Shown: positions 8,621 through 64,000 of the stretch, piece by piece
Layout of the letters: every line of letters starts with the position of its first letter
How positions within the stretch are numbered: position 1 is the first letter of the stretch
Source of the DNA: a virus
Length of the DNA stretch: 64,000 nucleotides
Virus record (IMG/VR): IMGVR_UViG_3300020165_003419
Location: 1 to 64,000 of that record
Strand: one strand, 5' to 3'
Notes under the pieces: model-generated
The model's database searches: none
Told to the model about the DNA's origin: nothing
The model's input: only the letters and a program-made list of their open reading frames with translations
Program-made: the position numbers and the translations under genes

Positions 8621-8965
8621 TTAAACCTTGTAGTTTCGCCAACTAAACTTTTTTCTTTCCGTTAAGTAGTTTTCTTTATACATTTGGTCATAAGCTTCTT
8701 GCTCAAATCTAATTTGAAAATAAGCTTTTTGTCTGTCGCGATATTTTATTAATCCGACAAGCCAATCCCATACATACAATATATAAAAGAATACCACAAA
8801 AAGTTCTTTTTGTTGAAGAATATGTATAGTTTCATGCTGAAGAGTGTCTGCGGACATCTCGTCGCGAGATATTATAAACGGATACAAAGTTATTGCCCAC
8901 ACGTCTATAACCCAGGAAATAGCGCGTGTGAACCGGGGTGCCACTATGGTAACTGGAATTTTCAT
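8621..8965 (-). CDS. Small HExxH-motif protein (putative zinc metallopeptidase-like, membrane associated)
   Basis: LQHETIHILQQ followed by a hydrophobic helix and RFEQEAY. Confidence 0.6.
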   Translation of the reverse strand: MKIPVTIVAPRFTRAISWVIDVWAITLYPFIISRDEMSADTLQHETIHILQQKELFVVFFYILYVWDWLVGLIKYRDRQKAYFQIRFEQEAYDQMYKENYLTERKKFSWRNYKV

Positions 8966-10257
8966 ATATCTAATTTTAGTTTGAATGCAATTTCTTGATC
9001 GTCTTGTTTTAACACAGGGGATCCTAAAGTCGCGACACCAATAAGGTTTTTGTTCTTGTCATAAATTCCAACTTTGGAAATATAAACTTGTCTTTTGAAC
9101 GGTGCGTTATACTCTGTGTAACTGGAACTGACGAAGTTTACAAGTTTTAAGTCCGAGCTTTCTTCATAAACCGACGAGCCAGTGGAAAATATTTTAGTTT
9201 GTCCAAACTGCAAAAACGAGGGGTTATTAGAATAGTTTACTTCTCCCTTCTTCGCCTTGGCAAACATTGTCAATACTTGAGTCTCGGTAACTCCCTTGAA
9301 AGAAAGTTTGTATGAACCGTTTCCAAACGAAGCGGCGGATGCTGCCCGAGTGTTTCCGTCATTTGCGCCGGCGCCAAAATAAATCCATTTCGGTTTCTTA
9401 AGTCCTATCGGAGCGGTTCCCACTCTCATGGTTTCTTCGTTGAGATCCCACGAGCCTGTCAGTAATATAATACCTTCTTCATACAAAACAACACCGGCCA
9501 CTTTGTTATCGTATGTGCTGTGAACCGATGAGGAGAACTGCCGCAATTCTCCATTTTGCTTTGTGTCTGCCACAACTGATACCAGTGAGCCGGTGTAGTA
9601 CCACTCTAACCTCACGCTTCCAGGCTTAATCTTTGTACCATAAAATATTGATGGTATATGGATCATATTTAGCTCTTGAGAGTCTTTGTTCCAATTTCCA
9701 CTTGATAAAACAGCATAGTGTTCGCTTCGTATACGATGATGGTTTAAGGTATTTCTAATTGCCATGTAGTTTGTGTTGTATTCACCGATGCCGTGTGGGG
9801 TGACGGCGCCGGCTGCTAATGAAGAAGACGGAGTTGCAACATATTCTCTCGTAATTGATGCAGAGAGGGGGTACTTTGATCTTAATATATCTCCATATCT
9901 AAACTCGTTATTATAACTAAGAGCCCCAACTGTTTTAAAGCTTGCGCCGGCAGAATCTTTTGATATCCATGGGTAGATTCTGCCATTATTGGGGACTCTA
10001 GTATCTACTTCGCCTTCTTCGGGCTCCGCTTCAGGTCCGATATATCGACCAGTAGCTACCTCTGGTCTGTCAATATTGAGTTCGTATAAACTTATGAAAC
10101 CATTTGCGACATTTCTAACTCTAGTGTTTCTTGTGCCGATTTGGTCAGGTCTTTGGTTATAATAAACATTACTATCATAAATAAGAAAATCACTATGAGG
10201 ATAAGCCCTCATAGTGTTTCTTAGAATATCATTCTTGTCGAACTTTTTGAACGACAT
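8962..10257 (-). CDS. Virion tail/baseplate structural protein
   Basis: C-terminal YISKVGIYDKNKNLIGVATLGSPVLK...FKLKLDI motif shared with the neighbouring gene; lies in the structural module. Confidence 0.6.
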   Translation of the reverse strand: MSFKKFDKNDILRNTMRAYPHSDFLIYDSNVYYNQRPDQIGTRNTRVRNVANGFISLYELNIDRPEVATGRYIGPEAEPEEGEVDTRVPNNGRIYPWISKDSAGASFKTVGALSYNNEFRYGDILRSKYPLSASITREYVATPSSSLAAGAVTPHGIGEYNTNYMAIRNTLNHHRIRSEHYAVLSSGNWNKDSQELNMIHIPSIFYGTKIKPGSVRLEWYYTGSLVSVVADTKQNGELRQFSSSVHSTYDNKVAGVVLYEEGIILLTGSWDLNEETMRVGTAPIGLKKPKWIYFGAGANDGNTRAASAASFGNGSYKLSFKGVTETQVLTMFAKAKKGEVNYSNNPSFLQFGQTKIFSTGSSVYEESSDLKLVNFVSSSYTEYNAPFKRQVYISKVGIYDKNKNLIGVATLGSPVLKQDDQEIAFKLKLDI

Positions 10258-10258
10258 A

Positions 10259-11314
10259 TTAGTAATCCAATCGGACGCGCAGTGTAATATCGTTTGTAGG
10301 ATCTTTCTTAAGTGGTTCGGACAGCTTTGCGACTGCTACTAATTGATTAGCGTCGTTGTACAGACCGACCGTAGTAATGTAAGAAACTGGATTGTCAGTG
10401 GATTGGTTTTTGACTACTATCTTGCTAGCACTCACATAAGTTGGGTTAGCACTATAGTTAAATTTATTGTGTGGAACTCTGCAGAAGAAAATTCTTGAAT
10501 TAATCTGCGTAGTATTATTGAATGACAGGTTTTTGACTCTGCGCCTAAATGCATCGCAAGATGAACTAATAGTTGAACCAGTAAGTGACTGGTCAATATC
10601 TCTGGTTGGGAGAGCAGCTTCTTTGTTGAATTCACCCTGCTGATTGCTAAACACTGACGCAGTTATGACTGCAACACCTGCTTGGTAGAATATCGCGCCA
10701 AGACCATTCGGGTATCCAGGTCCCCCATATAATACGCCATAATCGCCACCATCGGTGTTTAGGGTACCTTCTCCATTAACAGAGGCGCTGCGATCAGAAA
10801 GCGTAAGCTGCTTTGCAAATGATGTGGCATATGAACCGGTACCAAGGACTAATGAGAATGTTCCTTTTTTAATCTGGTCTTTTGTGAGTAGTCTCGAAAA
10901 GCTTAAGAAGAAACATTCCTTCATGTATCCCAATCCGTCAAGCGTTAGGTCACGTTCGAATTTTCTAATACCATCACCAGTGGACGAGGTATACCCTAAA
11001 AGCACTTGTGCAAACTGATTGTACATATTTATTTTTTTAGTGTTCTGAACGCTAGTGGAACCCGAAAGAGGGGACTTTTCGTCGTATCCCAATGTAATGT
11101 CAAATATGTGGTTAGCAGAAGAACTTAAGAAAGGATAATCATATACACTCTGAAACTGTCCATGTGTGTAATTTTTAATATTTCTTTCGCTTCTGTATAC
11201 TCCATATGTACCACTTACAATTGTACCCGTTAAAGGTATTGCTTCGTGTAACATTGTTGTGGTATTAGTAACATCGTTTGTTGAATCGATTGATTCGTAA
11301 TTTCTGACTGCCAT
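10259..11314 (-). CDS. Virion tail/baseplate structural protein, paralogue of 8962-10257
   Basis: IKKGTFSL...GAIFYQAG...NYSANPTY...YITTVGLYNDANQLVAVAKLSEPLKKD...RVRLDY. Confidence 0.6.
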   Translation of the reverse strand: MAVRNYESIDSTNDVTNTTTMLHEAIPLTGTIVSGTYGVYRSERNIKNYTHGQFQSVYDYPFLSSSANHIFDITLGYDEKSPLSGSTSVQNTKKINMYNQFAQVLLGYTSSTGDGIRKFERDLTLDGLGYMKECFFLSFSRLLTKDQIKKGTFSLVLGTGSYATSFAKQLTLSDRSASVNGEGTLNTDGGDYGVLYGGPGYPNGLGAIFYQAGVAVITASVFSNQQGEFNKEAALPTRDIDQSLTGSTISSSCDAFRRRVKNLSFNNTTQINSRIFFCRVPHNKFNYSANPTYVSASKIVVKNQSTDNPVSYITTVGLYNDANQLVAVAKLSEPLKKDPTNDITLRVRLDY

Positions 11315-48543: not shown

Positions 48544-48764
48544 TCAACCATGTTTAGCAAATCTTCTTTTGTGATCTCACTTTCGCTAGAAACACGTACA
48601 GTAGGGGGGTTTGTAACAGTGAGTCCTTCTTCGGTGGCCACTAATTCAAATCCTTTTAGGATTGGAACAATGTCGATTTGATTTAACAAAGATTCTTGTA
48701 ACGCCATCATTACGGCGCCGAGAGCCTGATTTGATAGTTTATAAGTTTCAGTATTATTATCCAT
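48540..48764 (-). CDS. Hypothetical protein
   Basis: Likely start is ATG 48764 (MDNNTETYKLSNQALG...), preceded by AAGGA. Confidence 0.55.
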   Translation of the reverse strand: MDNNTETYKLSNQALGAVMMALQESLLNQIDIVPILKGFELVATEEGLTVTNPPTVRVSSESEITKEDLLNMVE

Positions 48765-50438: not shown

Positions 50439-51142
50439 TTATAAAGTCTCTGGTAATCTAGTTTTGCTTGGTGAATTTTGTTTTTAGCCTCGGAAGGATC
50501 AAACACCCCTTGACCAGCATAGTGTATTATATGGGAATCAAATCTATTTGGGGAACCGTTCCATTCCTCAGAAAACATTGTCATGTGATTATAATGATAA
50601 CTCAATTGTTTGACTTTGTAACCATATTTATTTATTAAATAACCAATATGAATATCATCTGTGCCCCAATCAACAAAATATTTACCGTCAATTTTTCGAT
50701 AAATGTCTCGGTGCATTTTTGATGTAACAAAAACACCGGTGTTAATATAGTTATCTCTCCATCCGATATCACCATATTGTGACTGGGCATTCAACATACA
50801 CTGCACTCTTTGACCTTTCCGGGAACCCACATCTTCGTAAATTGAACCAATGTGATCCTCTGGCACTTCTTCAAATAGATTAGGACAGTTAGGCGCCAGA
50901 AGCATATCTGAATCGAGGTGCAGAATTCTATCATATTCTTCGTGAAGATCGTAGTGCTTCATTATTCGATACTGATATACTCCGTTTCCGATGCCACCTA
51001 CAGCTTCCTTACAGTCTACCGCTTCATCCAAGACAATAAAATCTGCTCCAACTCTTTCAGCATATCGACGAATAATCGGATGTGTTAATTCAACCCAATC
51101 TAAACAGACTGCGTCTGCTCTTGTTGTAACCAAAAGACTCAC
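50435..51142 (-). CDS. GT-A fold glycosyltransferase (GT8-like)
   Basis: RILHLDSD (DxD), YINTGVFV, YNHM, IIHYAG. Confidence 0.75.
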   Translation of the reverse strand: MSLLVTTRADAVCLDWVELTHPIIRRYAERVGADFIVLDEAVDCKEAVGGIGNGVYQYRIMKHYDLHEEYDRILHLDSDMLLAPNCPNLFEEVPEDHIGSIYEDVGSRKGQRVQCMLNAQSQYGDIGWRDNYINTGVFVTSKMHRDIYRKIDGKYFVDWGTDDIHIGYLINKYGYKVKQLSYHYNHMTMFSEEWNGSPNRFDSHIIHYAGQGVFDPSEAKNKIHQAKLDYQRLYK

Positions 51143-51873
51143 GCATCACCTTTCTTTTCCATATATACTAATGCGTTAGTGGAGTGGTAAGAGTTGAGTG
51201 TGCCGGCATCGGCCCACCTTTCTTCCAAAATAGAATAACCACAGGTCCCTTCTTCAATAAATTTGTTATTAATACTTGTGATCTCATACTCACCGCGGTC
51301 TGACATGTCGGCATGTTCAATAATATCAAATACACCATTGGTGTAGAAATAGATCCCTACACACGCCAATTTGCTTTTTGGGTGTGCTGGTTTCTCTTCT
51401 ATTTCGATGATCTTATCTCCCTCAAAAACGCCAACTCCGTACCTTCTTGGATCATCTACATGTTTAAAAAATACTTTACAGTTATCTTCTGAGCTTAAAA
51501 AGTGCTCTACGTGAGGTCTTAGATCTTCTTTGAAAATGTTATCTCCCAGAATTACAACGCACGAACTATCTCCCACAAATCCCTCACATAAACGCAGGGC
51601 GCCAGCAATTCCATCAGGCTTGTCTTGTACCTTGTAAGTAAAACTACACCCGTGATCTGCTCCAGAGCCAAGGAGAGACATCATATCCCCACAGTGTTCT
51701 ACTCCGGTTACAATCATAATATCTTTTATTCCTGCTTCTACAAGGCGCGCTATCGGATGATAAATCATAGGTACATCCCCAACTGGTAGCAGGTGTTTAT
51801 TTGTTACTTTAGTAAGCGGGTACAGACGAGTGCCCATTCCACCAGCCAGTACTATTCCTTTAATGTTTTTCAT
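51139..51873 (-). CDS. rmlA: Glucose-1-phosphate thymidylyltransferase-like nucleotidyltransferase
   Basis: GIVLAGGMGTRLYPLTKVTNKHLLPV, LGDNIF, IEEKP, SDRGEYEIT, WADAGT. Confidence 0.9.
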   Translation of the reverse strand: MKNIKGIVLAGGMGTRLYPLTKVTNKHLLPVGDVPMIYHPIARLVEAGIKDIMIVTGVEHCGDMMSLLGSGADHGCSFTYKVQDKPDGIAGALRLCEGFVGDSSCVVILGDNIFKEDLRPHVEHFLSSEDNCKVFFKHVDDPRRYGVGVFEGDKIIEIEEKPAHPKSKLACVGIYFYTNGVFDIIEHADMSDRGEYEITSINNKFIEEGTCGYSILEERWADAGTLNSYHSTNALVYMEKKGDA

Positions 51874-52813
51874 TATACCACTCTATTGTTTTTTTCAATC
51901 CGTCTTCAAAAGTCGTTGAGGGATTCCAACCTAACTCATTAATAATTTTACTACTATCAATTGCATATCTTTGGTCATGACCCAGGCGATCTTTAACATA
52001 TTCAATGCTTTCGGACGGCTTTACATTCATTATAGCACATATTTCTTCAATAACATCAATATTTTTCTTTTCACAATCGGAACCTATACAATAAGTTTCC
52101 CCAGTTCTTCCTTTTGTAAAGACATCCCATATTGCTGCACAGTGATCTTCGACGTAAATCCAGTCTCTGATATTAGTACCGCTGCCGTACAGTGGGATTT
52201 TTCTGCCGTCTAATATACAATTAATGACAGTGGGAATAAATTTTTCACTGTGTTGATTGGGTCCATAATTATTTGAGCAATTCGATATAGTTATAGGCAT
52301 ATCGTATGTGTGGTGGTACGCACGCACAAGCATATCAGACGATGCTTTTGATGCAGAATATGGATTCTTTGGGTTATAAGGGGTATTTTCGTCAAACTTG
52401 CCGGTTGGTCCCAGATCCCCATATACCTCATCAGTCGATACATGATGAAATCTTTGGATATCAAACTCCATGCACATCTTTAACAAATTAAAAGTACCAA
52501 CAATGTTGCTTTGAATAAAAGCACTAGCATCTTTAATTGAGTTATCAACATGACTCTCGGCGGCCAAATGAATTATATGTGTAATCTTATGATTGTATAT
52601 GGTTCCTCTAAGGTTTTCAATGTCGCATAAGTCAATTTTTGCGAAAGAATACTTTGGGTTATTGATAAACTCATCTGTATTCTTTAAATCTGCGGCATAT
52701 GTCAGAGAATCCAAATTAACAATCTTGGAGACTTCGCTTGTTTTCTGTTCTAATATAAATTTTATGAGGTTGGAGCCGATAAAGCCACAACCTCCTGTTA
52801 CAAGTATATTCAT
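51860..52813 (-). CDS. rmlB: dTDP-glucose 4,6-dehydratase
   Basis: VTGGCGFIGSN, LTYA, HLAAESHVDNSI, HVSTDEVYG, PYSASKASSD, NNYGP, DRLGHDQRYAID. Confidence 0.95.
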   Translation of the reverse strand: MNILVTGGCGFIGSNLIKFILEQKTSEVSKIVNLDSLTYAADLKNTDEFINNPKYSFAKIDLCDIENLRGTIYNHKITHIIHLAAESHVDNSIKDASAFIQSNIVGTFNLLKMCMEFDIQRFHHVSTDEVYGDLGPTGKFDENTPYNPKNPYSASKASSDMLVRAYHHTYDMPITISNCSNNYGPNQHSEKFIPTVINCILDGRKIPLYGSGTNIRDWIYVEDHCAAIWDVFTKGRTGETYCIGSDCEKKNIDVIEEICAIMNVKPSESIEYVKDRLGHDQRYAIDSSKIINELGWNPSTTFEDGLKKTIEWYNEKH

Positions 52814-53460
52814 TATTTTCTAAACCCATATAGTTCATTACTATAATAACTTGTTTCAAAACCTAATGCAACTAATTTATTTGATAAACCGTCTATTAAT
52901 CGCTGTAATAAACCCGGGTCACTTGGATCCTGAATATAATGAACTTCCATTGACAACTGTTTTATTTTTTCTGCTACTTCAAGAGTCATAGTCTCCACTA
53001 AATCAAATTCAGCGCCTTCAATATCTAACTTTAGGTAATCTATTTGTCCCAATTCATATAAATCAAATATCTTTTTTAAGGTAATTGTTTCAACTATTGT
53101 TTCTTTTCTTTTTTTTCCACGTTCAGCAGCAAATGGGTCGTACATCCCGTTCATATTGCCCCACTCTGGGAGGTCTTCATATTCAATAAATTTTTCGTGG
53201 GTGTTACTGCTTTCTCCCACTAAGATTTTGTTGTATATTTTTACGTCCGAAACTCCTTTAAATTCAGCAGGCATGTTTGCGCTGTTTAGTGAAGAAGCTT
53301 CGAAACCTATGATCTTAAATTTTTCTGGATTTGTGTAGCAATGCAATTCATTAATAAAATCACCTTGACATACTCCTCCATCAATTATAGTTGCATTTTC
53401 TGGCAACATTTCAAAATTAATAATGTGTCCCAGATGTTTGCCTAAATATATGAGCGACAT
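52813..53460 (-). CDS. FkbM-family methyltransferase
   Basis: IIDGGVCQGDF...VETITL...IDYLKLDIEGAEF...QLSMEVH. Confidence 0.85.
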   Translation of the reverse strand: MSLIYLGKHLGHIINFEMLPENATIIDGGVCQGDFINELHCYTNPEKFKIIGFEASSLNSANMPAEFKGVSDVKIYNKILVGESSNTHEKFIEYEDLPEWGNMNGMYDPFAAERGKKRKETIVETITLKKIFDLYELGQIDYLKLDIEGAEFDLVETMTLEVAEKIKQLSMEVHYIQDPSDPGLLQRLIDGLSNKLVALGFETSYYSNELYGFRK

Positions 53461-53469
53461 GTTCCTGCT

Positions 53470-54807
53470 TTATTTTTTAACGTTATTTATATTTGTGCCA
53501 ATTGGCGTTGATGTTGATTGGGCTTCTAATTCTCTCATATCCCCAAATCCACCAAATTGCGATGAATCTTCTTGTCTTTCGCATAACAACAAATCATACT
53601 TAGTCTTAAAATATGCTTGCTGGGCTTTTAATTCGATGTTCGTAAAATGTTCTGTGGACCAGAAATCATTTGAATATTCATCTGCTGTTTCCCAGTTTAC
53701 GTTCTCGTGCAACTTTGGATCGTATAATTGTGTTCCGGGATACGGGCATAAAATTGTAAACCCAACCACATCTGGTCTAATCTCATCAATTAATTTTTCA
53801 GTGAGCAGTAGGTCTTCTCTTGTTTCATTAGGCATACCAAACAAGAAGAAGCCGCGTCTTTCTACTCCATATTTCTTAGCCCAAGCAAATACATTCTTGA
53901 TTGTTTTAACCTGTAGACCCTTGCCAACGTCGCGGAGGATTCTATCACTACCGCTTTCACATCCAATATTTACTTGGTGACACTGGGATTCTTTAAGCCA
54001 TTTAAACATCTCTTCGCTTGCAAAGCTAGCATGAATAAGGCACTCCCATTCTGTGGTGATTCCTCTCTTGATTTTTTCTTTGCAAAACTCAATAACAAAA
54101 GCAGCTGAGATATCAAAGGTTGCATCTACAAACTTAAAGTAAGTCAAGTCAAGTTCTTCGATTACTGATTCTATTTCATCACAAAGCTCGCTAACATCTC
54201 TGCTTCTGATCGGATTGTTGCGGCGGTGAAACCTGCCCGACACAATTCGTTCTGCACAAAAAGCGCAGTTAACAGGACATACCCTGTTACATTGAAAGGA
54301 TGCTGTGCGCTTACCATTCATGGACTCGCACAAATCAACGGTTCTGTAATTTTTGATTATACTACGGTCTGGCCATGGCAATTCTTGCATTGGCGGCTTG
54401 GTTCCTTGTATAACAGGGTCTGTTCGACCATTTACAATTTCTAAGAACACCTCTTCACCTTCGCCAATAACAACTTGATCAACATAAGGATGTGCAGCGC
54501 ACTCTTGTGGGAGTGCTGATGGATGGAAGCCACCAAATACTGTTCGTATTTCAGGATTTCTTTTCTTCATTGCCTCTGCTAATCTTAGGGCATGCGGCCA
54601 TGCAGGAGAGGTGCAAGAAAACCCTACAACATCTGCGTCAATTGAGCCTTCAATAATCACTTCATCTGTATCAAAGTTTCCCTGGTAGCATTCTACCTCA
54701 AGATCTCCAACAAAATGTTTCTTCAAATACCCCGCAATGAAGCCTAAACCAATTGGTTCCCAGATATTTTCATAATATGGTTGTACTAATACTACTTTTG
54801 TTGTCAT
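53470..54807 (-). CDS. Cobalamin (B12)-binding radical SAM protein
   Basis: PIGLGFIAGYL, DVVGFS, VFGGFHPS, IGEGE (B12 domain); CPVNCAFC cluster motif; GCESGS, FGMPNET, PYPGT. Confidence 0.9.
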   Translation of the reverse strand: MTTKVVLVQPYYENIWEPIGLGFIAGYLKKHFVGDLEVECYQGNFDTDEVIIEGSIDADVVGFSCTSPAWPHALRLAEAMKKRNPEIRTVFGGFHPSALPQECAAHPYVDQVVIGEGEEVFLEIVNGRTDPVIQGTKPPMQELPWPDRSIIKNYRTVDLCESMNGKRTASFQCNRVCPVNCAFCAERIVSGRFHRRNNPIRSRDVSELCDEIESVIEELDLTYFKFVDATFDISAAFVIEFCKEKIKRGITTEWECLIHASFASEEMFKWLKESQCHQVNIGCESGSDRILRDVGKGLQVKTIKNVFAWAKKYGVERRGFFLFGMPNETREDLLLTEKLIDEIRPDVVGFTILCPYPGTQLYDPKLHENVNWETADEYSNDFWSTEHFTNIELKAQQAYFKTKYDLLLCERQEDSSQFGGFGDMRELEAQSTSTPIGTNINNVKK

Positions 54808-55437
54808 TTATCGACCCTCCTTATATACATCATATATAGATAAGTCTTGGTATTCTCGCTCTAAATCATCGTTGTGATCTGCAATGCCGAGCATTAAAAC
54901 AAGACCTTTTGCAGCAATCTCCGGTAACATGTAATAATTCCAACCTAACATATCAAAGTGATCTACCATGTGATCTACCGGATTTCTACCAAAATAGCGA
55001 GCCCTCTTAAGCCACTCATACGCTTCTTTATCATCGGTTAGAATCATACCGCCCTTACCAAGCTTCAAGAACTTGTGGGGTCCACTAAACGAAATACATT
55101 GCATTTGTCCCGGTCGGTACATATCCTTAGTAAATCTTAAGGCACTGTCCCAAACTGGCAATGGAGAAAGTTGGTATTCTCCTTTTAATTTATTTCCGGC
55201 GAGAGCTGGGTGTTCTTTATCAAACTTTACGTGATTACCAGACTGTATGATAGCGCAGGGTACCGACATAAAGGTTCTTGCAGGAATAGTTAATTCTTGT
55301 CCTTGGGTTTTCAGATACTTAAGACACAAGAACATACCATTAGTTGCGTTGTCCACTGCGACGGCATATTTGGCGCCGGTGTACTCGGCTACTGTTTCTT
55401 CAAACATGTGCGTAACTTCGTATGGGTTGTGTTTCAT
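54808..55437 (-). CDS. Short DegT/DnrJ/EryC1/StrS-family PLP aminotransferase
   Basis: FEETVAEYTGAKYAVAVDNATNG, DSA, SFSGPHKFL..GKGGMILTDD, GWNY; only 209 aa. Confidence 0.75.
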   Translation of the reverse strand: MKHNPYEVTHMFEETVAEYTGAKYAVAVDNATNGMFLCLKYLKTQGQELTIPARTFMSVPCAIIQSGNHVKFDKEHPALAGNKLKGEYQLSPLPVWDSALRFTKDMYRPGQMQCISFSGPHKFLKLGKGGMILTDDKEAYEWLKRARYFGRNPVDHMVDHFDMLGWNYYMLPEIAAKGLVLMLGIADHNDDLEREYQDLSIYDVYKEGR

Positions 55438-56096
55438 TTGATACCTCGTAACTTCTTGTATATCATTTCAGCAACCATAAAATCAAATTCTGTATCAATA
55501 TCAATTGATTCAATTTCATCTAACACTTTAAAAGTGGGGTTATCTGTCACTACGTTTCTATATTTTATCATATCTTTTTTAGAGATTATGCAGATTCCAT
55601 AAGTTACTGCGTTAATATCTGGTAAATCTTGGCTGTTGGGCGACTCTGCAATGTCGTAGTTTAATGGTTTACCATCTAACCACATGTGATGTTTAATTTG
55701 AGACACTGTTACAAGATTTTCTAACTCATCATCTTGTTTAAATTTCTGAATACAGTCATGATATGTCTCTAACGATATCATTGGACACGTAACCGGGCTG
55801 TACATAAGATACTCTGCATCCATGCAGTGAGCTAGATTTTCAAAAAATTCAGAATTAGAAGCTTCGGAACTAGCGTGATACTGGTCACGAGTGTGAGTTT
55901 TTACTCCATGTTCTCTGGCAATAGAAAGCATTTTTTCACAATCGGAACTTACCACGATATCGTCTACAAGTTTGACTTGCTTAAGTTGATTAATTTTTAA
56001 TTCTAATAAGTTCGTATCTGCAAATGGCTTAAGGTTTTTGTTTTTAACTCTTACTGAGCCTTTACGCACTGGGATTACTGCTGTTATTTTTCTCAC
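55434..56096 (-). CDS. Acylneuraminate cytidylyltransferase family (NeuA/PseF-like)
   Basis: AVIPVRKGSVRVKNKN, IVVSSD, PVTCP, SIDIDTEFDF. Confidence 0.88.
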   Translation of the reverse strand: MRKITAVIPVRKGSVRVKNKNLKPFADTNLLELKINQLKQVKLVDDIVVSSDCEKMLSIAREHGVKTHTRDQYHASSEASNSEFFENLAHCMDAEYLMYSPVTCPMISLETYHDCIQKFKQDDELENLVTVSQIKHHMWLDGKPLNYDIAESPNSQDLPDINAVTYGICIISKKDMIKYRNVVTDNPTFKVLDEIESIDIDTEFDFMVAEMIYKKLRGIK

Positions 56097-57073
56097 TTAA
56101 GCCTCTCAAGGATCTCGCTCCAGTTGTTGGTGAATTCGATTGCTTTATCATCAATATAAAATTTTGCTCTTGGCTTCTCATGTGTGATTTCAGACACGTA
56201 ATCGCGTACACCATGAAATTCCAGCCACTCATCAACCAGTTCATAGCCTGTTTTGCCGTTTACAAACGGTCTGTCCGGGCGTACCTTGGCGGAAAAAATA
56301 ATAATGTTCCAGTCATCCGCCAGAGATTTTATTGCTTCCAGGGCGCCTTCTATGGGCGCCCCATAACACGTGCCATCGTGCCAGCCTTTATCAAATGTAT
56401 GCACGACACCGTCAAAGTCAATAGCTAAGTTTGCCAATTGACTCTCTAGTCCGGGCGGAACCTCTTGATTGTGGGTCTCAACCTCTGACTCGATGCCAAG
56501 TTTTTCAAATCTTCTTTCTTGGGCCTTCTTAGAAATAGTAGGACACATAAACCCTGCATCATGGATTAACTGGTATGTCATCGTTAGCGACAAAATCTCT
56601 GAGGTATGATAATATTTGGCGTGCTGAATAACTTGGATGACCTTGGGGTTTATTCCCTTCTCTTTTGGCTGTGCTGCCCAAAGTGCGCTTGGGATTCCTT
56701 GGTCTGCTGCCCAATTCAGTGCGGTTGCAAGACAATCAGATGATGCTCCATTAGTTGAGCAGGATAACCCAATAGCCAAGCATTCACTTTTGTCGAGGTT
56801 TCTTGTTCTGATCTCCAACCAATTTTGAATCCAATCATTGAAGCTTGTATCTCCCTGAATCGAAGTAACAACTACTCCGCCGCCGGGAGCATATACGTTC
56901 TTATCTGTTAGTCGCGATGCATCAACTGCAGCGTGCTCAGCAATACTCATATTACCGCCGTGACCAAAAAAGAAAACGTGCTTGGCGTCATTGTAAAGTT
57001 CTTGTAGCTGTTGAAATTCATCTGTAGCTACAATCGCTCTGAATTTATTTTCCATTGATTCAATGTCTAACAT
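56093..57073 (-). CDS. SIS-domain sugar-phosphate isomerase fused to a HAD-superfamily phosphatase
   Basis: VFFFGHGGNMSIAEHAAVD...IGLSCS (GmhA-like SIS); LAIDFDGVV...IIFSA...KPRAKFYIDDKA (HAD motifs I-IV). Confidence 0.75.
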   Translation of the reverse strand: MLDIESMENKFRAIVATDEFQQLQELYNDAKHVFFFGHGGNMSIAEHAAVDASRLTDKNVYAPGGGVVVTSIQGDTSFNDWIQNWLEIRTRNLDKSECLAIGLSCSTNGASSDCLATALNWAADQGIPSALWAAQPKEKGINPKVIQVIQHAKYYHTSEILSLTMTYQLIHDAGFMCPTISKKAQERRFEKLGIESEVETHNQEVPPGLESQLANLAIDFDGVVHTFDKGWHDGTCYGAPIEGALEAIKSLADDWNIIIFSAKVRPDRPFVNGKTGYELVDEWLEFHGVRDYVSEITHEKPRAKFYIDDKAIEFTNNWSEILERLK

Positions 57074-57081
57074 TTTTTAAT

Positions 57082-57801
57082 TTATCCTATATTATTTTGA
57101 TCTGCTGTCGGGAAGATATCTAATGACACTGGGTTTATTGAGTATATTTCAACGTCTGGGTAATTCTCTTCTATCCACCCTTTTACAATTCCCCAGTATC
57201 TAGCTATCCAATAACCGGCTCCTTGATCTTTACCGATCATTATTTTTGCAAATGTGCCGTTATCATAATTACAATCATGCCCAACAAGGTATATTTTTTT
57301 TACACCGCAATATAGCATGAACTGTAGCACCTCAAAAGATATAGAAGCGACTGCCATAAGTGGTCCGATTGTTATATCTTTTTTAAACATACAGGTGTCA
57401 GGATTTCCATCGCTATCACATTCATAATATTTTGCATTTTTAATTCTACCGGGCATTTGACCAGATCGAGGTACAACTCCAATCTCTGGGATCTCTATAA
57501 CTCTGTTGTCTTCCCAAATTGGATGTCTAATAAATTTTTGTATATTCGGTTTATACTCGTTGTATTCTGCATATCTATAATAAAACTTTGCTGGAACCTG
57601 TGGCATTGCATCTCCCATAAACCAATAATCTAAATTTAAATCTAGAAATATTTGATCGTTTACACCATATCTTAACACGTCCGGGGGCAGCTGTCCACTA
57701 TTAAATTCAAGAATTGTTGGTCCTGAACCGAATAATACAGCGCTGGCGCCCTCGTGTTTATTGTGGTACTCGGCAAATGCGTTCCAGTTAAGCACACTCA
57801 T
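57082..57801 (-). CDS. DUF115/Maf-like (sialyltransferase-related) protein
   Basis: AVLFGSGPT, YGVN, SISFEVLQFMLYCGVKKIYLVGHDC. Confidence 0.65.
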   Translation of the reverse strand: MSVLNWNAFAEYHNKHEGASAVLFGSGPTILEFNSGQLPPDVLRYGVNDQIFLDLNLDYWFMGDAMPQVPAKFYYRYAEYNEYKPNIQKFIRHPIWEDNRVIEIPEIGVVPRSGQMPGRIKNAKYYECDSDGNPDTCMFKKDITIGPLMAVASISFEVLQFMLYCGVKKIYLVGHDCNYDNGTFAKIMIGKDQGAGYWIARYWGIVKGWIEENYPDVEIYSINPVSLDIFPTADQNNIG

Positions 57802-58394
57802 TTTAATTTTCCAATATAAACAGGAATATTTCTTTTGTCTCCACCAAGTAATTTATTATTTGTAAGCCTCTGCCTGTTTTCAAATGTTTTATCAAACCAG
57901 TTTTCAAGTGTGGGCTGAAACGCCGGATCTTCGACTTCGTTGCCATAATCTATAACAAAACAATTTTTTACTCTCAAGTTTTCAAAAATGTCTGTATAAT
58001 AATTTTGTGGAGTTTCTGATAGGCAGTGTGTTTCGATTATCATATCCCATTCTTCGTCAAAAACTTTTTTATATTCGCTAGATTTAAAAAATCTAACATT
58101 ATCGCCAACATTTTGTTTGATGAGATCGAAATGTGCCTCAAGATCTAATATTGCGTAATCCACATTTTTATTTAATTGTAAAATATTTTTTGCCAAAAAT
58201 CCATTACCGGCGCCAATTTCTAATATTTTACCACTAAAATCAGAATAATGTTCTGACCACAGGTTAACATATTCTTGGTCACCGGTGGAAGATATTTTTC
58301 CTACTGGTGAGCTTGAGTTAAACCATGTTGGTTTTACGTTGTTTTCTTTGCTATCATTTGGAACCATTCCAGGTGCTAATTTCCATTTTGACAT
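57798..58394 (-). CDS. SAM-dependent (putative sugar O-) methyltransferase
   Basis: KILEIGAGNGFLA, YAILDL, THCLSE. Likely start is ATG 58394 with an AGGAG RBS. Confidence 0.7.
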   Translation of the reverse strand: MSKWKLAPGMVPNDSKENNVKPTWFNSSSPVGKISSTGDQEYVNLWSEHYSDFSGKILEIGAGNGFLAKNILQLNKNVDYAILDLEAHFDLIKQNVGDNVRFFKSSEYKKVFDEEWDMIIETHCLSETPQNYYTDIFENLRVKNCFVIDYGNEVEDPAFQPTLENWFDKTFENRQRLTNNKLLGGDKRNIPVYIGKLK

Positions 58395-58398
58395 ACTC

Positions 58399-59349
58399 CT
58401 ATCCCAATCCTCTTTTAATGTTGACGTATGGATTGACGAAATCGGCAACATTTAGTGCCTTGATTATCTCATCAATTCCCTCTTCAATCGTAACCTCTGT
58501 TTTAAAGCCAAGAGCTTTTATCTTATCATAACTTACGATGTAATTTCTCTTATCTGCGTCTTCACCAATTTCTTCGAAGTGAATGAATCCATTAGTTTTA
58601 TCGGCTACCATGCGGCAGACATCTTCTTTACTGTAGTTCATTGAGTCATCACCAATATTATATACATTGTTGACCATCTTATCAACGTTGTTGACCGCTA
58701 GCATAAAAGCGTTGGCCATGTCTGAAACATGGATAAACGTTCTCATAAAGTGTTTCTCGTAAACAACCAAATACCCATCACGCAAACACTTGTTGGTGAA
58801 GTCATTAATGAGCAAGTCAAGTCGAAGACGAGGAGAAACACCGAATGCGGTAGCAAATCGATACGCGATAACATTACCGCGCGCCATTAGCATGTGCTCT
58901 GCTTCTGTTTTTGTTTCTCCATATAGGCTCAACGGATTAAGAGGCGATTCTTCCGTACAAATATCCGTTACCTTGCCATAGTTGCTTCCAGTCGAACCAT
59001 ATAAGATTATCTGTTCTGGGCTGGTAGCGTCAATTATATTCTGGGTTCCGCCGACGTTAACGTTAGTTGCTAACTCAGGGTTGTTTTTACAGGCAGGGAA
59101 CCCAACAATTGCCGCTAAATGAATAATGATATCCTTATCTTTTACTGCAGCTTCTACGTCCTTCTTGATTGTAACATCTCCGTTAATGAAATGAAAATTC
59201 TTATTCCTGAAAAACGAGAGAAGTTGATTACCTCCTTGCATCAGATTATCAAACACTGTCACCTCATGCCCAGCTTCGATAAGCTTGGGTAACAGTGCGG
59301 TACCTACATACCCGGCGCCCCCGGTGACTAAAATTCTTTTCTTTACCAT
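58399..59349 (-). CDS. NAD-dependent epimerase/dehydratase (extended SDR)
   Basis: VTGGAGYVG, HLAAIVG, YGETK (YxxxK), RFATAFGVSPRLRLDLLIN. Confidence 0.9.
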   Translation of the reverse strand: MVKKRILVTGGAGYVGTALLPKLIEAGHEVTVFDNLMQGGNQLLSFFRNKNFHFINGDVTIKKDVEAAVKDKDIIIHLAAIVGFPACKNNPELATNVNVGGTQNIIDATSPEQIILYGSTGSNYGKVTDICTEESPLNPLSLYGETKTEAEHMLMARGNVIAYRFATAFGVSPRLRLDLLINDFTNKCLRDGYLVVYEKHFMRTFIHVSDMANAFMLAVNNVDKMVNNVYNIGDDSMNYSKEDVCRMVADKTNGFIHFEEIGEDADKRNYIVSYDKIKALGFKTEVTIEEGIDEIIKALNVADFVNPYVNIKRGLG

Positions 59350-59630
59350 ATTGATAACCTTCCTAATAAAATATCTTTAAACATAATCCAATCAGCTATT
59401 TTTGCTTTTACTGGATCATTGAATGCTGCTGGTTTGTTTTTTTCGAAAACATAATGTCCTGTCCAAGCAAATGGATATACGACGAATGGCGCGAACAGCA
59501 AACCGAACCATGCGTTATTAACTATTATAACACCTACATACAAAATTGTAAGCCATAAACCAATAAAATGCAATAATCTGCATTTTGGGTGGGTGTGTAA
59601 TTTTAAATAATTTTGATAATACTCATGCAT
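59343..59630 (-). CDS. DUF962/Mpo1-like membrane protein
   Basis: YLKLHTHPKCRLLHFIG...AWTGHYVFEKNKPAAF. Confidence 0.8.
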   Translation of the reverse strand: MHEYYQNYLKLHTHPKCRLLHFIGLWLTILYVGVIIVNNAWFGLLFAPFVVYPFAWTGHYVFEKNKPAAFNDPVKAKIADWIMFKDILLGRLSIW

Positions 59631-60342
59631 TTTCTTTTATAAACCTCTGGAATCTTTCTATTATCTCATCTTTGCTATACAGATAGGGACCTGTTCTTCC
59701 CCAATGAATCGAATGAGCAGTTAACATATTCTCATGTACAACTTTTTCGGGGTCTGTGCATAAATAGTCTGACTTGAATAACTTAAGTATATCATGAAAA
59801 AGTATCGGCTCTGTAGCTATGTTTAACGTTTTAAGTTTCGCGTTTTGCATTATTATTATGTCTTGCCACAGTAAGTCTAAGCAGTAATATTGAAAAGTTG
59901 AATCTTGGTGTGGTAAATAACTCTCTTCTTTGTTTAACAGATCGTAGATTGCATTCTTTCTCAATCCATCTCCAAACAAAGACGGCAACCGCACAACAGA
60001 GACATCATCAAAATGATTTTTTAAATATGTCTCCAGATAAAGACGATTTTGACCATATGCGTTATCAGCAGGGTTATCGTAAACAGCGATTGTAGAGATA
60101 AGAATTAATTTTTTAAATTTTGTTTTTTCTAAATTTTTAATCAATCTTTGAATTTGTGCAAAGTCTTCTTTTGGCTGCTTATTCGCTTTCCATTTTACGC
60201 TACTTACGCCAGCACACACTATCAACTCAAATTGTTGACCAGAAATCTCTTCAATGTTTTTAGAATTATAGTATCTGTCAAATTGCGTTTGTTCTGATAA
60301 ATTTGAACCAACAAACCCAGTGTGCCCGATAAGTGCTTTCAT
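59623..60342 (-). CDS. NAD-dependent epimerase/dehydratase-like protein
   Basis: ALIGHTGFVGSNL, ISTIAVY, YGQNR, VRLPSLFG. Confidence 0.75.
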   Translation of the reverse strand: MKALIGHTGFVGSNLSEQTQFDRYYNSKNIEEISGQQFELIVCAGVSSVKWKANKQPKEDFAQIQRLIKNLEKTKFKKLILISTIAVYDNPADNAYGQNRLYLETYLKNHFDDVSVVRLPSLFGDGLRKNAIYDLLNKEESYLPHQDSTFQYYCLDLLWQDIIIMQNAKLKTLNIATEPILFHDILKLFKSDYLCTDPEKVVHENMLTAHSIHWGRTGPYLYSKDEIIERFQRFIKENA

Positions 60343-61478
60343 TGATTGTCGTATTCTTTAATGTTTGTAATAATTCTGGTGACGTCGTCTTCAGTCAGAT
60401 CTGAATGTAAAGGGATGAGGATGACATCTTCGTCGGCTCGCTTAAGGTTTGGCAAGTCACAAAGCCCGCCGAACATCTCATATATATCATTTCTTCGATT
60501 ATTAACGTTAACTTGAATATTCCTATCCCACATGTAGTGAGCGAACTCTTCGCGGTCTTCGACATGGATAGGAAAAATCTGATAGTTGGGTGTCCAGTGA
60601 TCTTGGTAGTTTAAAAGCGTAACCTTTGTTAAACCTTGCAGCTCTCTTCGGTATCTTTCTCCAATCTGCTTACGATGTTCCAAGACTCTGTCTAAATGAT
60701 CCATTGCTACACTGGCGAGTGTTGCAGTGATGTCATTCATGTTTGATTTAAATCCAAGCCCATCGGGTGGGACAGGGAGAGGATCCAAAATGCTGGTCTT
60801 CTTGACCTCTCGATCAATCCCATACCAAGACTGCTTGCGAATCTTCTTATATAAAGCTTCATCAGTGGTGGTTATGACTCCGCCATCTCCACAGGTTACA
60901 ATCTTAACGCACTGGAACGAGAATGTTGCCACATCTCCGAAAGATCCAATAGGTTGTCCCTTGTATTCGCATGCCATTGCGTGCGCGCTATCTTCGATAA
61001 TTGGAAGACCATGACGGTCTGCTACTTCACGTAGCTCGTCCATATCAACAGGATTGCCCGCATAGTGAACGCACATGATCGCTTTTGTTTTATTTGTAAT
61101 CTTCTCTTCGACGCTCTTTGGATCAATATTGAGTGTATCATATTGAATATCCGCGAACACGGGTGTGGCGCCAATCTCAAGAATTGAAGTATTAGTCGCA
61201 ATAAAGGTGAATGGTGTACTGACTACTTCGTCGCCGGGGCCGACATCAAGAGCTTTGAGCGCAATTTTAAGAGCGGCGGTTCCGCTCATGCAAGCTGCAG
61301 CATATGGAGCTTTAAACCTTGCTCGAACTTTTGCTCTAAATTCTGCTTCTTTCTTACCGGTATTAAGCCACTTTGACTTAAGTGTCTTAGCTACTTCTTC
61401 ACCAGCTTCGTCTGGAACGTACACACTCCAGCACCTGATGATGGACTCTTCCATTTTAAAATCATTGTCAGTTGTCAT
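60339..61478 (-). CDS. DegT/DnrJ/EryC1/StrS-family sugar aminotransferase
   Basis: SGTAAL, GPGDEV, VHYAG, IEDSAHA, FSFQCVKIVTCGDGG. Confidence 0.92.
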   Translation of the reverse strand: MTTDNDFKMEESIIRCWSVYVPDEAGEEVAKTLKSKWLNTGKKEAEFRAKVRARFKAPYAAACMSGTAALKIALKALDVGPGDEVVSTPFTFIATNTSILEIGATPVFADIQYDTLNIDPKSVEEKITNKTKAIMCVHYAGNPVDMDELREVADRHGLPIIEDSAHAMACEYKGQPIGSFGDVATFSFQCVKIVTCGDGGVITTTDEALYKKIRKQSWYGIDREVKKTSILDPLPVPPDGLGFKSNMNDITATLASVAMDHLDRVLEHRKQIGERYRRELQGLTKVTLLNYQDHWTPNYQIFPIHVEDREEFAHYMWDRNIQVNVNNRRNDIYEMFGGLCDLPNLKRADEDVILIPLHSDLTEDDVTRIITNIKEYDNQ

Positions 61479-62344
61479 TTACTATTCTCCTTTACTTTTG
61501 TTGCTGTGACGTAATAAACTGAATTGGGTATCTTGCCACTACTGAATGTCAAATCTTCACTTTCAATCGCCCTAATTATTGCATCTCTTTCAAGATATAT
61601 GACGGCGCGGATCTCATCAACCTCATCTCCGAAGAGTCCGCTGGCTTCAAAAGGCATTATAACATGGTCGTCTTCTTTTTCAAAACCAAAATCTTTAAGC
61701 ATACAGTCAATAGTGTCTGGGTGATACATTCTCTGTCGATTAAATTGTATCTCTGTTTTTGCTCCGAATGGAACTGATAAGATAAGCTTTCCTCCAGGCT
61801 TTAAAACTCTATGGAACTCTTTTAAACCTTTTTGATCGCCGTAATAATCTAACTCGTCTCCATAACGACCAAGCCCAAAATGTTCTAAAGCGTGTAGACA
61901 TGTTACTATATCATAACTATTGGCTTTAAACGGCAGCAATTGAGCTTCACTAAGTTTCAACTCAAAAGATGGTATAGTAGCTGCACACCATTCGCCGTTT
62001 GGTTTTAATTCTTTAAATAAACAATTTACTCTAGGCTCCACATATGTAACCTCGCAGGTATGGCTAAAGAACAAAGCCGTTTCAAGTCGGCTGGAAATAT
62101 CAAGCAGTTTAGGCGGAGTTGGTACACCCAATGAGTATTCAAGAACCGCTCTTGTTGCTTGGTAATCTTGATACATATAAACGCTGTCAACGTTCAAAGT
62201 CCCAGCGCAGTCTTTAAAATAACTTCTTTCAATCTCATCTTCATCTTGTTGGAAATAATCAACAAATTTAGAGCTTTCATCTTTTTTCTGTCTAAGCAGA
62301 GCTTTAAGCTCCTCTTTTTCATCTTCGGCTGTCTTTACTGTCAT
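61475..62344 (-). CDS. DUF268-like SAM-dependent methyltransferase
   Basis: LLDISSR, YDIVTCLHALEHFGLGRYGD, RVLKPGGKLILSVP. Confidence 0.75.
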   Translation of the reverse strand: MTVKTAEDEKEELKALLRQKKDESSKFVDYFQQDEDEIERSYFKDCAGTLNVDSVYMYQDYQATRAVLEYSLGVPTPPKLLDISSRLETALFFSHTCEVTYVEPRVNCLFKELKPNGEWCAATIPSFELKLSEAQLLPFKANSYDIVTCLHALEHFGLGRYGDELDYYGDQKGLKEFHRVLKPGGKLILSVPFGAKTEIQFNRQRMYHPDTIDCMLKDFGFEKEDDHVIMPFEASGLFGDEVDEIRAVIYLERDAIIRAIESEDLTFSSGKIPNSVYYVTATKVKENSK

Positions 62345-63267
62345 TACACCAGCCCCCTATAATATTGTACTGTTTGGCTAACACCTTCTTGGTGATCATA
62401 AAAAACGTAATCTTTGAACAAATCTTCAAATTTGCCCATTCCTAAAATCTTAATTGGAGCGCCATCTTGGAAATCTGTATTGAATGTGAGCTTGCCTTGA
62501 TAGCCGGTGGCTTTTGCTATGTTTTGTGCTGTTTCAGCAATTGCAAAGCCCTGCCCTTGAGCTACGTTTACTGGTTCAATAACTTTTTCAAGCTGCAGTG
62601 ACTGCAGTAAAATCTTACACACATCGTCTATGTAGATCCATTCTCTGACTGGCTTACCTGTTCCCCAGATCTCAAACTCTGTGTCATTGTTCTCGATAGA
62701 TTCTAACATTCTAATGATCATACCGTTTAGGGCATGCACCTTATTGGGGTCAGTACTGTCGCCTGGACCATAAATACCCGAAAACATGAGATTAATACTA
62801 TTGATATTATACTGCATTTCATAACACCGAGAGATGTAATACAAAACTCTCTTGAAGTTACCGAACGAAAATACCGAGGGATGAACTGTTCCGTCAAGCC
62901 ACTTTTCTTCTTCTTGGATCTGCGGGCCGTCAACATAACAACAATTAGAGAGCAGATTTACAATCGGTGTCGTTGGGCAGTTCTCTAATACAGCTTTATA
63001 TAAGTTTAGGGCGATATAAGTATTATCTGATATTACATCTCCCGCGAATGCCGTTACATAATGAACACTGCCGACATTTGCTGCACAATTAAAAATAGCA
63101 TCAATTCCGCGGTGTCGAAACTCCAGCAGCTTCTTGCTTAATTGTGTGTAATCTCTTAAATCGCACTGTGCTCTGGATAGTCCAATTACTTCGTGACCTT
63201 CATCGGTCAAATATTTTGTTAGGTTTTTACCGACAAAACCAGTGTGCCCTAATACGATGTATCTCAT
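62344..63267 (-). CDS. GDP-L-fucose synthase-like epimerase/reductase
   Basis: VLGHTGFVG, CDLRD, NCAANVG, IYGPGD, HALNGMI, EIWGTGKPVREWIY, DG. Probable start is ATG 63267. Confidence 0.8.
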   Translation of the reverse strand: MRYIVLGHTGFVGKNLTKYLTDEGHEVIGLSRAQCDLRDYTQLSKKLLEFRHRGIDAIFNCAANVGSVHYVTAFAGDVISDNTYIALNLYKAVLENCPTTPIVNLLSNCCYVDGPQIQEEEKWLDGTVHPSVFSFGNFKRVLYYISRCYEMQYNINSINLMFSGIYGPGDSTDPNKVHALNGMIIRMLESIENNDTEFEIWGTGKPVREWIYIDDVCKILLQSLQLEKVIEPVNVAQGQGFAIAETAQNIAKATGYQGKLTFNTDFQDGAPIKILGMGKFEDLFKDYVFYDHQEGVSQTVQYYRGLV

Positions 63268-63998
63268 TTTGTTCTCTCCCAAATATATTTTATGTCTTCT
63301 TCATTAAAAAATCTAGCTGAAGACTGTTGTGCTATCACCAAGCCATCGGCTGTTTTTGTTGATTTCCTTTCTTTTATGGACTGTTCAAGTTCGGATATAA
63401 TCTCTTTTGATATATGTGGTGTTAATTTAACAATATTGTTTTGTCCTTTTGTATAAAGCTCCAGATATGAATATAAATGTGGCTCGTTGGGATAGCTGTA
63501 GTTGTAATTTAATATAGTTGCGCCATCAAATCGTGCGCGATTATCATTCACAAGTTCAAAATCCCATGATGTCATATTGGGTCGTAGATATTTCAAAAAA
63601 TATTCTTTAGACCATATTGCTGGATGCAACGACATTCGGTACTCGATATGTTGAGCAAACTCAAGCAAGTTTTTGTTATCTTCAAAAGTTTTTGTGGCAC
63701 TTAAAGAAATACCGCCGCCAAGCATTGCTTTTTGTGCTTTCTTATTTATGAGTTGTTCTTCTAATTCAGCTATCTTATTGAGCGGCACTTGATTCATTAA
63801 GATGTGATCATCAAATATTAGAGCGAAGTATTCTTCTTTAACTTCTTTAAAGAATGGGATAAGGGCATTTGTCCACGTTTTGCCATAATCTTCTTGTGTA
63901 CCCACACAAGCAACATTTACGTTATCTGGCAACTCTTTTAATTCTAACACATCTTCATAGCCGACGATCGTTATGTCTTGATTCGGCCAATACTTGTT
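63264..63998 (-). CDS. Putative glycosyltransferase-like protein; start lies beyond the right edge
   Basis: The frame stays open to the window edge (NKYWPNQDITIVGYED...). W...L...EEYFALIFDDH (DD motif), SLHPAIWSKEYF, WDFE. Confidence 0.5.
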   Translation of the reverse strand, partial: NKYWPNQDITIVGYEDVLELKELPDNVNVACVGTQEDYGKTWTNALIPFFKEVKEEYFALIFDDHILMNQVPLNKIAELEEQLINKKAQKAMLGGGISLSATKTFEDNKNLLEFAQHIEYRMSLHPAIWSKEYFLKYLRPNMTSWDFELVNDNRARFDGATILNYNYSYPNEPHLYSYLELYTKGQNNIVKLTPHISKEIISELEQSIKERKSTKTADGLVIAQQSSARFFNEEDIKYIWERTK

Positions 63999-64000
63999 GA

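Follow-up and report, generated by a model that had tools for sequence, protein, structure and literature searches.

Motif-rich tail proteins

The DNA analysed here (the window) comprises the first 64 kb (64,000 nucleotides) of the marine viral contig IMGVR_UViG_3300020165_003419, which is 98,299 bp long, is estimated by CheckV to represent about half a genome and carries nearly all of its genes on the minus strand. The window holds a T4-type contractile-tail baseplate module, with both gp6-like and gp25-like wedge proteins, and a large cluster of sugar genes. Our subject is a tripeptide, [Ser/Thr]-[Gly/Ala/Ser]-Ser (the motif class [ST]-[GAS]-S), which is overrepresented in a few tail proteins and may serve as the attachment site for sugars that the phage puts on its own tail. 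The nearest deposited phages are distant (~25–40% protein identity), i.e., the Microcystis phage Mel-JY01, the Flavobacterium phage immuto, the 484-kb uncultured phage LR756508 and the Rhodothermus phage RM378. Closer relatives of the 519-aa protein listed below, at least 160 in number, occur in IMG/VR, and three complete genomes (194–203 kb) are among them. Lineage searches covered 50,697 phage records, the sugar genes were compared with those of five large relatives, and one complete relative, G003, was used for checks on capsid and sheath proteins. Motif enrichment was assessed for 92 open reading frames (ORFs) of the contig from 500–1000 composition shuffles per protein. The motif-rich proteins and the wedge genes are the following:

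8962..10257, minus strand: 431-aa distal tail/baseplate protein, motif-enriched (7 motifs against 1.7 expected, z 4.1); C-terminal domain paralogous to that of the 351-aa protein
10259..11314, minus strand: 351-aa distal tail/baseplate protein, motif-enriched (9 against 1.8, z 5.3)
22744..34464, minus strand: 3906-aa giant baseplate-module protein with LamG/ConA-like domains (Laminin_G_3 match, 1.4e-28), motif-enriched (59 against 19.4, z 9.3)
34466..36025, minus strand: 519-aa protein directly after gp6, with a CBM96-like N-terminal domain, motif-enriched (14 against 3.0, z 6.5)
36025..37821, minus strand: gp6-like baseplate wedge subunit, 598 aa (phrog_6, 1.3e-21), with 0 motif sites; matches annotated baseplate wedge proteins in tblastn
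37836..38201, minus strand: gp25-like baseplate wedge protein, 121 aa (PF04965, 5.1e-13)

Only the first four of these, among all 92 ORFs, are enriched, three to five times over expectation, and together they hold 89 sites where ~26 are expected. The first-pass annotation of this DNA had claimed that a subset of its structural proteins is dense in such tripeptides, and the shuffles bear this out for the four (z 4.1–9.3); the peptide strings that it quoted are present. It had also described the motif as scarce in the primase, the SbcC-like protein, the sugar enzymes and gp6, and indeed none of these, nor the other replication proteins, showed enrichment on shuffling. The same holds for structural proteins of comparable Ser/Thr content (350, 326, 966, 1265 and 2154 aa, and gp6). 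When every tripeptide of the four proteins was scanned without presupposing the motif, TGS (17 observed, 3.0 expected), SGS (20, 4.6) and SAS (18, 4.6) came out on top, and nothing comparable was revealed in the remaining structural proteins. When the 64 tripeptides made up of S, T, G and A are considered, the motif set lies 3.4-fold over expectation and all others pooled 1.4-fold, with enrichment by tripeptide of 5.2-fold for TGS, 4.4-fold for SGS and 4.0-fold for SAS. AGS, GGS, SGA, SGG and TGA are not above expectation in the four proteins and, consequently, hydroxyl residues matter at both positions 1 and 3. The signal is thus ordered and directional: hydroxyl, small, Ser.

Neither Ser/Gly/Thr richness nor local low complexity can be the cause, since the excess persists after shuffling within windows of 15, 30 and 60 residues (z 3.6–8.4) as well as over whole proteins, exceeds a first-order Markov control (89 observed, ~48 expected), and does not extend to AGS, GGS, SGA and SGG. 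The motif sites are encoded by varied codons, which indicates a protein-level signal and rules out a DNA repeat as its source. In most cases one or two hydrophobic residues of a strand come before the motif: position -1 is hydrophobic in 58% and position -2 in 44% of the sites, against a background of 31%. Two known sequons were also considered and rejected, the D-[ST]-[AILVMT] sequon of Bacteroidota (z -1.0) and N-x-[ST]. The latter is in fact depleted in the four motif-rich proteins (8962-11314 and 22744-36025), with 48 sites against 67 expected (z -2.7).

Sequence similarity among the four proteins is for the most part undetectable. A C-terminal domain is common to the 431- and 351-aa proteins and is multi-copy in Mel-JY01; homologues of the former occur in Mel-JY01, immuto and RM378, and of the latter in Mel-JY01 (five places), immuto, RM378 and LR756508. 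The giant protein compared with itself shows no self-similarity at E <= 10, so that internal domain duplication is rejected as the cause of its motif count. The 431-, 351- and 519-aa proteins have no match in PHROGs or Pfam. For the 519-aa protein tblastn against the phage records also gave no match, and a family hidden Markov model (HMM) was therefore needed to find its orthologues in Mel-JY01 (386 aa) and immuto (369 aa). The AlphaFold2 model of the 519-aa protein is all-beta (predicted local distance difference test score, pLDDT, 73.8), and its N-terminal domain has fold matches to the carbohydrate-binding modules 8wab and 7vbo, in addition to a CBM96 lead from Atlas. In this model nine of the 12 assessable motifs are placed at strand-loop boundaries and others within loops, and none in mid-helix or mid-strand; according to DSSP, six lie at a strand C-terminus running into a loop and three where a loop runs into a strand.

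The motif is conserved well beyond this contig. All 76 homologues of the 519-aa protein examined carry 9–18 motifs where ~3 are expected, and 70% of these motifs fall in 13 alignment columns; the variable motif columns mostly change within the class (SSS/SAS/TSS/TAS). Conservation is higher within motifs than outside them for each of the three residues compared (Ser 0.73 vs 0.53, Thr 0.87 vs 0.46, Gly 0.93 vs 0.67). The giant protein has 16 orthologues, all of them enriched (31–62 motifs, z 6.6–12.4), with a pairwise site sharing of only 43%; the excess stems from ~74 columns of intermediate-to-high occupancy. The post-gp6 orthologues of both Mel-JY01 and immuto are motif-enriched, mostly at different positions. 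Unbiased scans of the tail module of Mel-JY01 are again led by SGS (25 against 2.8) and TGS (12 against 1.5), and the same two tripeptides lead in immuto. Scans of whole proteomes reveal 3–9 enriched proteins per genome, mostly in the baseplate/fibre module. In T4, 25 structural proteins, those of baseplate and fibres among them, lack enrichment (maximum z 1.6), which rules out that the motif is a general property of myovirus tails. The motif is real and specific, and it is under selection as a class rather than as fixed residues. Limited full-text literature searches yielded no published description of it.

Enrichment was also observed in a 222-aa orphan near the head genes of G003 (190420-191088; L119:420-1088), with 7 motifs against 1.4 expected (z 4.7); its counterpart would fall in the missing half of the contig. 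Two further proteins are noteworthy. A 424-aa protein (45713-46987) ends in a VanY-type D-Ala-D-Ala carboxypeptidase domain and is, therefore, probably a tail-associated cell-wall hydrolase. It adjoins a 2154-aa orphan (38233-44697) with three hydrophobic segments and no family match.

The sugar island and the GT4 pair

The sugar cluster spans 48757 to contig position 70850, past the end of the window, and is thus larger than first noted. The genes from its flank onwards are:

47273..47995, minus strand: candidate late sigma factor, a weak assignment (phrog_234, E 0.002); island flank, 69–89% identity in 5/5 relatives
48757..49620, minus strand: short nucleotide-sugar (UDP-glucose-type) dehydrogenase (PF03721, PF00984; TIGR03026 182.9 bits, cut-off 189.8)
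49623..51142, minus strand: two ORFs of 271 and 235 aa, GT9-like and GT8-like, both sub-threshold (PF01075, E 0.0097; PF01501, E 0.013)
51139..52813, minus strand: RmlA-like glucose-1-phosphate thymidylyltransferase (Pfam; TIGR01207 227.5 bits, below cut-off) and dTDP-glucose 4,6-dehydratase (Pfam; TIGR01181 441 bits, equivalog cut-off 365.1)
52813..54807, minus strand: FkbM-family methyltransferase (PF05050; TIGR01444 38.8 bits, cut-off 37.7) and B12-binding radical-SAM enzyme (PF02310, PF04055), candidates for sugar tailoring
54808..56096, minus strand: short DegT/PseC-like protein of 209 aa (PF01041) and PseF/KdsB-like cytidylyltransferase (PF02348; TIGR03584 69.5 bits, below cut-off), a candidate CMP-ulosonic-acid branch
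56093..57801, minus strand: two ORFs of 326 and 239 aa, the second MptE/Maf-like but sub-threshold (PF01973, E 0.032) and with one close IMG/VR relative only
57798..64000, minus strand: by family matches, methyltransferases, three short-chain dehydrogenases/reductases (SDRs) of the epimerase/reductase type (one GDP-fucose-synthase-like), an Mpo1-like protein, a full-length DegT aminotransferase and an unknown ORF that crosses the window edge
contig 64067-64849, beyond the window: GT-D glycosyltransferase (PF08759, 39.4 bits, cut-off 27)
contig 68321-70850, outside the window: two adjacent glycosyltransferases of family 4, GT4a and GT4b (PF00534; 25.5 and 37.7 bits, respectively, cut-off 26.4)

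The first-pass annotation had counted about 19 consecutive sugar genes at 48757-64000. This region indeed holds 18–19 consecutive minus-strand ORFs, 12 of which have significant sugar-pathway matches in Pfam or NCBIfam. It had placed them next to a late sigma factor and a baseplate module; the baseplate genes are confirmed by the gp6-like and gp25-like matches, whereas the sigma factor label is weak. Its GT8, GT9 and Maf-like assignments all fall below curated thresholds (E 0.01–0.03) and could not be upheld. Beyond the window, the cluster also encodes an ADP-glyceromanno-heptose 6-epimerase (287.5 bits, cut-off 274.6), which is one of five SDR enzymes in the whole cluster, and a heptose-7-phosphate kinase-like protein (domain 145.9 bits, below cut-off). 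Two of the enzymes are unusually short. The nucleotide-sugar dehydrogenase (287 aa) covers only profile positions 65–298 of 413 and thus lacks the C-terminal domain as well as the start of the NAD-binding domain; the short form is kept in three relatives (41–56% identity) and is, therefore, not a local truncation. For the 209-aa DegT/PseC-like protein (54808-55437), the match to the aminotransferase profile is confined to the ~90 positions at the N-terminal end of the latter; the protein is matched over its full length in the relative L083 (76%) and in immuto (50%), so that it may represent a distinct short family rather than a fragment.

A hydropathy scan of 48757-70850 revealed no multi-pass membrane, flippase or polymerase-like protein, the sole hydrophobic ORF of the island being the 95-aa Mpo1-like protein. 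Pfam searches of the island likewise found no families typical of export loci (initiating transferase, flippase, polymerase, ABC transporter), although host machinery could serve.

Comparison with the five large relatives divides the cluster into two parts, a hypervariable sugar-synthesis island and the conserved GT4 pair. The island genes (49623-68324) are present in 0–3 of the five relatives, as mosaic modules, and megablast of the island against the phage records gave no match. All five relatives nevertheless have 3–6 SDR genes in the same place, and all keep the flanks, i.e., small ORFs and the sigma-like gene on one side and the GT4 pair, a PD-(D/E)XK nuclease and PhoH on the other. The GT4 pair itself occurs in all five (50–74% identity). 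Mel-JY01, immuto and RM378 have it as well, and no further lineage with the pair was found in the phage records searched. It belongs to a core set of only 26 proteins common to G003, Mel-JY01 and immuto, and both of its members have an invariant E-x7-E. The best solved-structure match of GT4b (contig 69570-70850; L001:9570-10850) is the chlorovirus NY-2A glycosyltransferase B736L (E 1.5e-7).

Every relative that shows the motif also encodes glycosyltransferases, but the 19-gene island is not conserved with the motif. Mel-JY01, for example, has the motif and several GT1 and GT2 genes, and no SDR sugar-pathway gene. Since island content differs almost completely among relatives that keep the motif and the GT4 pair is conserved, the link with the motif shifts from the island to the GT4 pair.

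A candidate promoter element that resembles late promoters was noted in this contig, the sense-strand heptamer CTANTTA (often ACTATTTA), which occurs within 60 nt upstream of 12 genes where 1.6 are expected. These include gp6, the gene of the 350-aa structural protein and PhoH (e.g., upstream of 37821 and 12382). It precedes no gene inside the sugar island and, consequently, leaves co-expression of island and tail undecided either way.

Possible functions of the tripeptide

The motif is best explained as a functional tag, peculiar to one lineage, that marks the distal proteins of baseplate and tail in a deep clade of aquatic T4-like phages. What the tag does can be approached through the genes that accompany it, and O-glycosylation of the tail proteins at the tripeptide is, in our opinion, the best reading, although we hold it tentatively and at somewhat less than even confidence. 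It is favoured because the motif is ordered, conserved as a class and specific to one lineage and to distal tail proteins, because soluble transferases are conserved next to a hypervariable sugar island that lacks export machinery, and because no ThyA-type hydroxymethylase was found in the contig, the complete relatives or Mel-JY01 and there is bacterial precedent for recognition at strand-loop positions. According to this reading, distal tail proteins would be O-glycosylated in the cytoplasm, before or during tail assembly. Reading the tag where strands meet loops, and adding the first sugar or sugars, would be the task of the two adjacent, soluble, clade-wide GT4 enzymes; the supply and further extension of the glycan would fall to enzymes of the strain-variable neighbouring island. 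The island of this phage may contribute dTDP-6-deoxyhexose, amino-sugar, methylation, CMP-ulosonic-acid and ADP-heptose branches, together with its GT-D, GT8-like and GT9-like transferases. The outcome would be a strain-specific glycan on the end of the virion that contacts the host. The fuller proposal, that the clade (the marine group, Mel-JY01, immuto and, more weakly, RM378) runs a sequon-directed cytoplasmic O-glycosylation in which a core pair of GT4 enzymes reads the tag and the hypervariable island is in effect a serotype locus for tail glycans, is possible but doubtful.

The virion glycosylation reading had been proposed in the first-pass annotation for the window alone. It is partly supported: the motif is real, it lies on the distal baseplate and neither export nor ThyA genes were found, but it is the GT4 pair, beyond the window, that accompanies the motif, and not the 19-gene island. 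The major head protein of G003 (2 motifs, z -0.2) and its sheath protein (z 1.3) are not enriched and, therefore, the tag does not mark a general virion coat.

The lack of enrichment in capsid and sheath, whose proteins form the most exposed surfaces of the virion, also counts against glycosylation itself, and so do several other observations. The number of motif columns of the giant protein that are occupied in only one or two sequences is about what chance predicts. RM378 shows weak enrichment, in two adjacent proteins (z 4.5), despite its GT4 pair. In the 'tail spike' of immuto, some of the TGS/SGS/TAS excess lies within a periodic repeat that contains ASYSHAEG and looks structural. The hydrophobic residues on either side of the motif and its strand-end position would also fit a purely structural turn or cap. 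Wherever synteny was seen, the GT4 pair adjoins the PD-(D/E)XK nuclease, which could hint at a role connected with DNA. Finally, the co-occurrence of motif and GT4 pair is not phylogenetically independent; one event at the level of the clade may account for it, and none of the clade members found was without the pair and so able to serve as a negative control. With regard to the repeat in immuto, the spike (1053 aa; L093:19630-22791) contains about ten copies of it.

The main rival is that the tripeptide is a lineage-specific structural or folding element of beta-rich tail proteins, not glycosylated, with the sugar genes serving another target. Such an element could be a small hydroxylated cap at strand ends, a tight turn, or a signal for chaperones or assembly. 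The hydrophobic residues that precede the motif, its placement at strand-loop boundaries in the AlphaFold2 model, the invariant columns at many motif sites and the repeat in the immuto spike are all consistent with this, as are the 1.4-fold general clustering of small residues in these proteins and the absence of the motif from capsid and sheath. However, T4 baseplate and fibre proteins of similar architecture do not show the motif, and its directionality is strict, with AGS, GGS, SGA and SGG unenriched. The motif also occurs in mutually dissimilar proteins, domain sharing being confined to the 431- and 351-aa proteins and the giant protein lacking internal repeats, and its density is held while positions shift, both in the giant protein and in the deep orthologues. 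We consider a structural element unlikely on balance, albeit better supported than host-surface modification or DNA glycosylation.

The gene content of the island resembles that of O-antigen and capsule loci (RmlA/B, DegT, SDRs, methyltransferases and the ADP-heptose branch), and its mosaic hypervariability is reminiscent of serotype loci. The island and the GT4 pair could, therefore, remodel the lipopolysaccharide (LPS), capsule or S-layer glycan of the host, or make another glycoconjugate, e.g., for superinfection exclusion, in which case the motif would be unrelated or the target of another modification such as phosphorylation or acylation. This seems improbable. The island lacks an initiating phosphoglycosyltransferase, a flippase, a polymerase, a ligase and an ABC-transporter-like membrane protein, and the GT4 pair is as conserved as the genes for capsid, tail and replication in phages that infect Flavobacterium, Microcystis and Rhodothermus, hosts with different envelopes.

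Hypermodification of the phage DNA with glycans by the GT4 pair and the island, as in T-even and other phages with glycosylated hydroxymethyl-pyrimidines, is very improbable. In its favour, the GT-B fold is that of the T4 DNA glucosyltransferases, this phage, Mel-JY01 and immuto all have the pair in synteny with the PD-(D/E)XK nuclease, and in RM378 it lies beside a DNA polymerase gene. However, in a search that did not extend to other routes to hydroxylated bases, no ThyA-family dCMP/dUMP hydroxymethylase exceeded the PF00303 cut-off in the contig, in Mel-JY01 or in the three complete relatives, and the protein motif would be left unexplained. Viral glycosyltransferases are reported to produce a variety of DNA glycans (Pyle et al., 2024, as cited in PMC12619734); against this explanation, immuto was studied for a 7-deazaguanine DNA modification in a preprint (bioRxiv 10.1101/2023.04.13.536721).

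If the tag is a glycosylation site, it would be the first O-glycosylation sequon to be defined for structural proteins of bacteriophages, and the abundant T4-like phages of aquatic habitats would provide the first case that concerns baseplate and fibres. Large strain-variable sugar islands, usually ascribed to remodelling of host LPS, would be accounted for, and a variable glycan layer would have to be included when modelling how phages in the ocean recognise their hosts, keep their particles stable and engage in arms races with those hosts. Three members of the clade (vB_FspM_immuto, on Flavobacterium sp. LMO8, Mel-JY01 and RM378) are in culture and, therefore, the idea is directly testable. 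If the tag is structural, it would still be a sharp, lineage-specific signature of outer tail proteins that helps to annotate orphan genes.

Comparison with known glycosylation systems

A system of the Maf/pseudaminic-acid type, as used for flagellin, was considered and rejected, since the Maf-like ORF reaches only 14.5 bits with PF01973 (E 0.032; cut-off 34.6). A CMP-pseudaminic acid pathway was rejected as well (PseF model 69.5 bits against 205.7; PseC model 256 against 423.5), and no NeuB/PseI-type synthase is present among the family matches of the island.

Mycobacteriophages reportedly glycosylate their virions with phage-encoded glycosyltransferases. The system proposed here is similar in that cytoplasmic glycosyltransferases encoded by the phage, near its structural genes, would act on its own structural proteins. 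The mycobacteriophage glycans are carried at the C-termini of capsid and tail-tube subunits, whereas the candidate sites here are a dispersed internal tripeptide of baseplate and fibre proteins, and the head protein and sheath of G003 are unenriched. Further differences lie in the hosts, the lineage and the large hypervariable nucleotide-sugar island that accompanies the candidate system.

The autotransporter heptosyltransferases (Aah/AIDA-I, TibC/TibA) are soluble, cytoplasmic O-glycosyltransferases that modify many Ser/Thr residues of a beta-rich adhesin, and a branch for the ADP-heptose donor is encoded in this phage too. However, no significant TibC/Aah-type enzyme is present (the GT9-like ORF reaches 15.7 bits, cut-off 22, E 0.0097), and no sequence consensus exists for Aah, in contrast to the evident tripeptide of this phage. 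Furthermore, the heptose module belongs to the variable island and occurs in some relatives only, so that it cannot be the clade-wide reader of the tag.

The glycosylation of serine-rich-repeat adhesins by GtfA/GtfB is resembled by the two adjacent GT4-type proteins, the GT-D (DUF1792) enzyme and the GT8-like hint, and its S-x-S acceptor resembles SAS and SGS. Unlike the non-catalytic GtfB, both GT4 proteins of the phage keep the catalytic E-x7-E, and their similarity to GtfA, including GtfA structures, is insignificant (E 0.13–0.47). The serine-rich-repeat substrates are of low complexity, whereas the candidate substrates here are folded beta proteins with dispersed sites and no repeats.

Chloroviruses and giant viruses, finally, likewise combine their own nucleotide-sugar pathways with cytoplasmic glycosyltransferases, and the best match of GT4b among solved structures is to a chlorovirus enzyme, B736L of NY-2A. 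In chloroviruses, the major capsid protein carries the glycans, which are N-linked, and the virus is a eukaryotic one, whereas here the candidate glycans would be O-linked and carried by the tail proteins of a bacteriophage.

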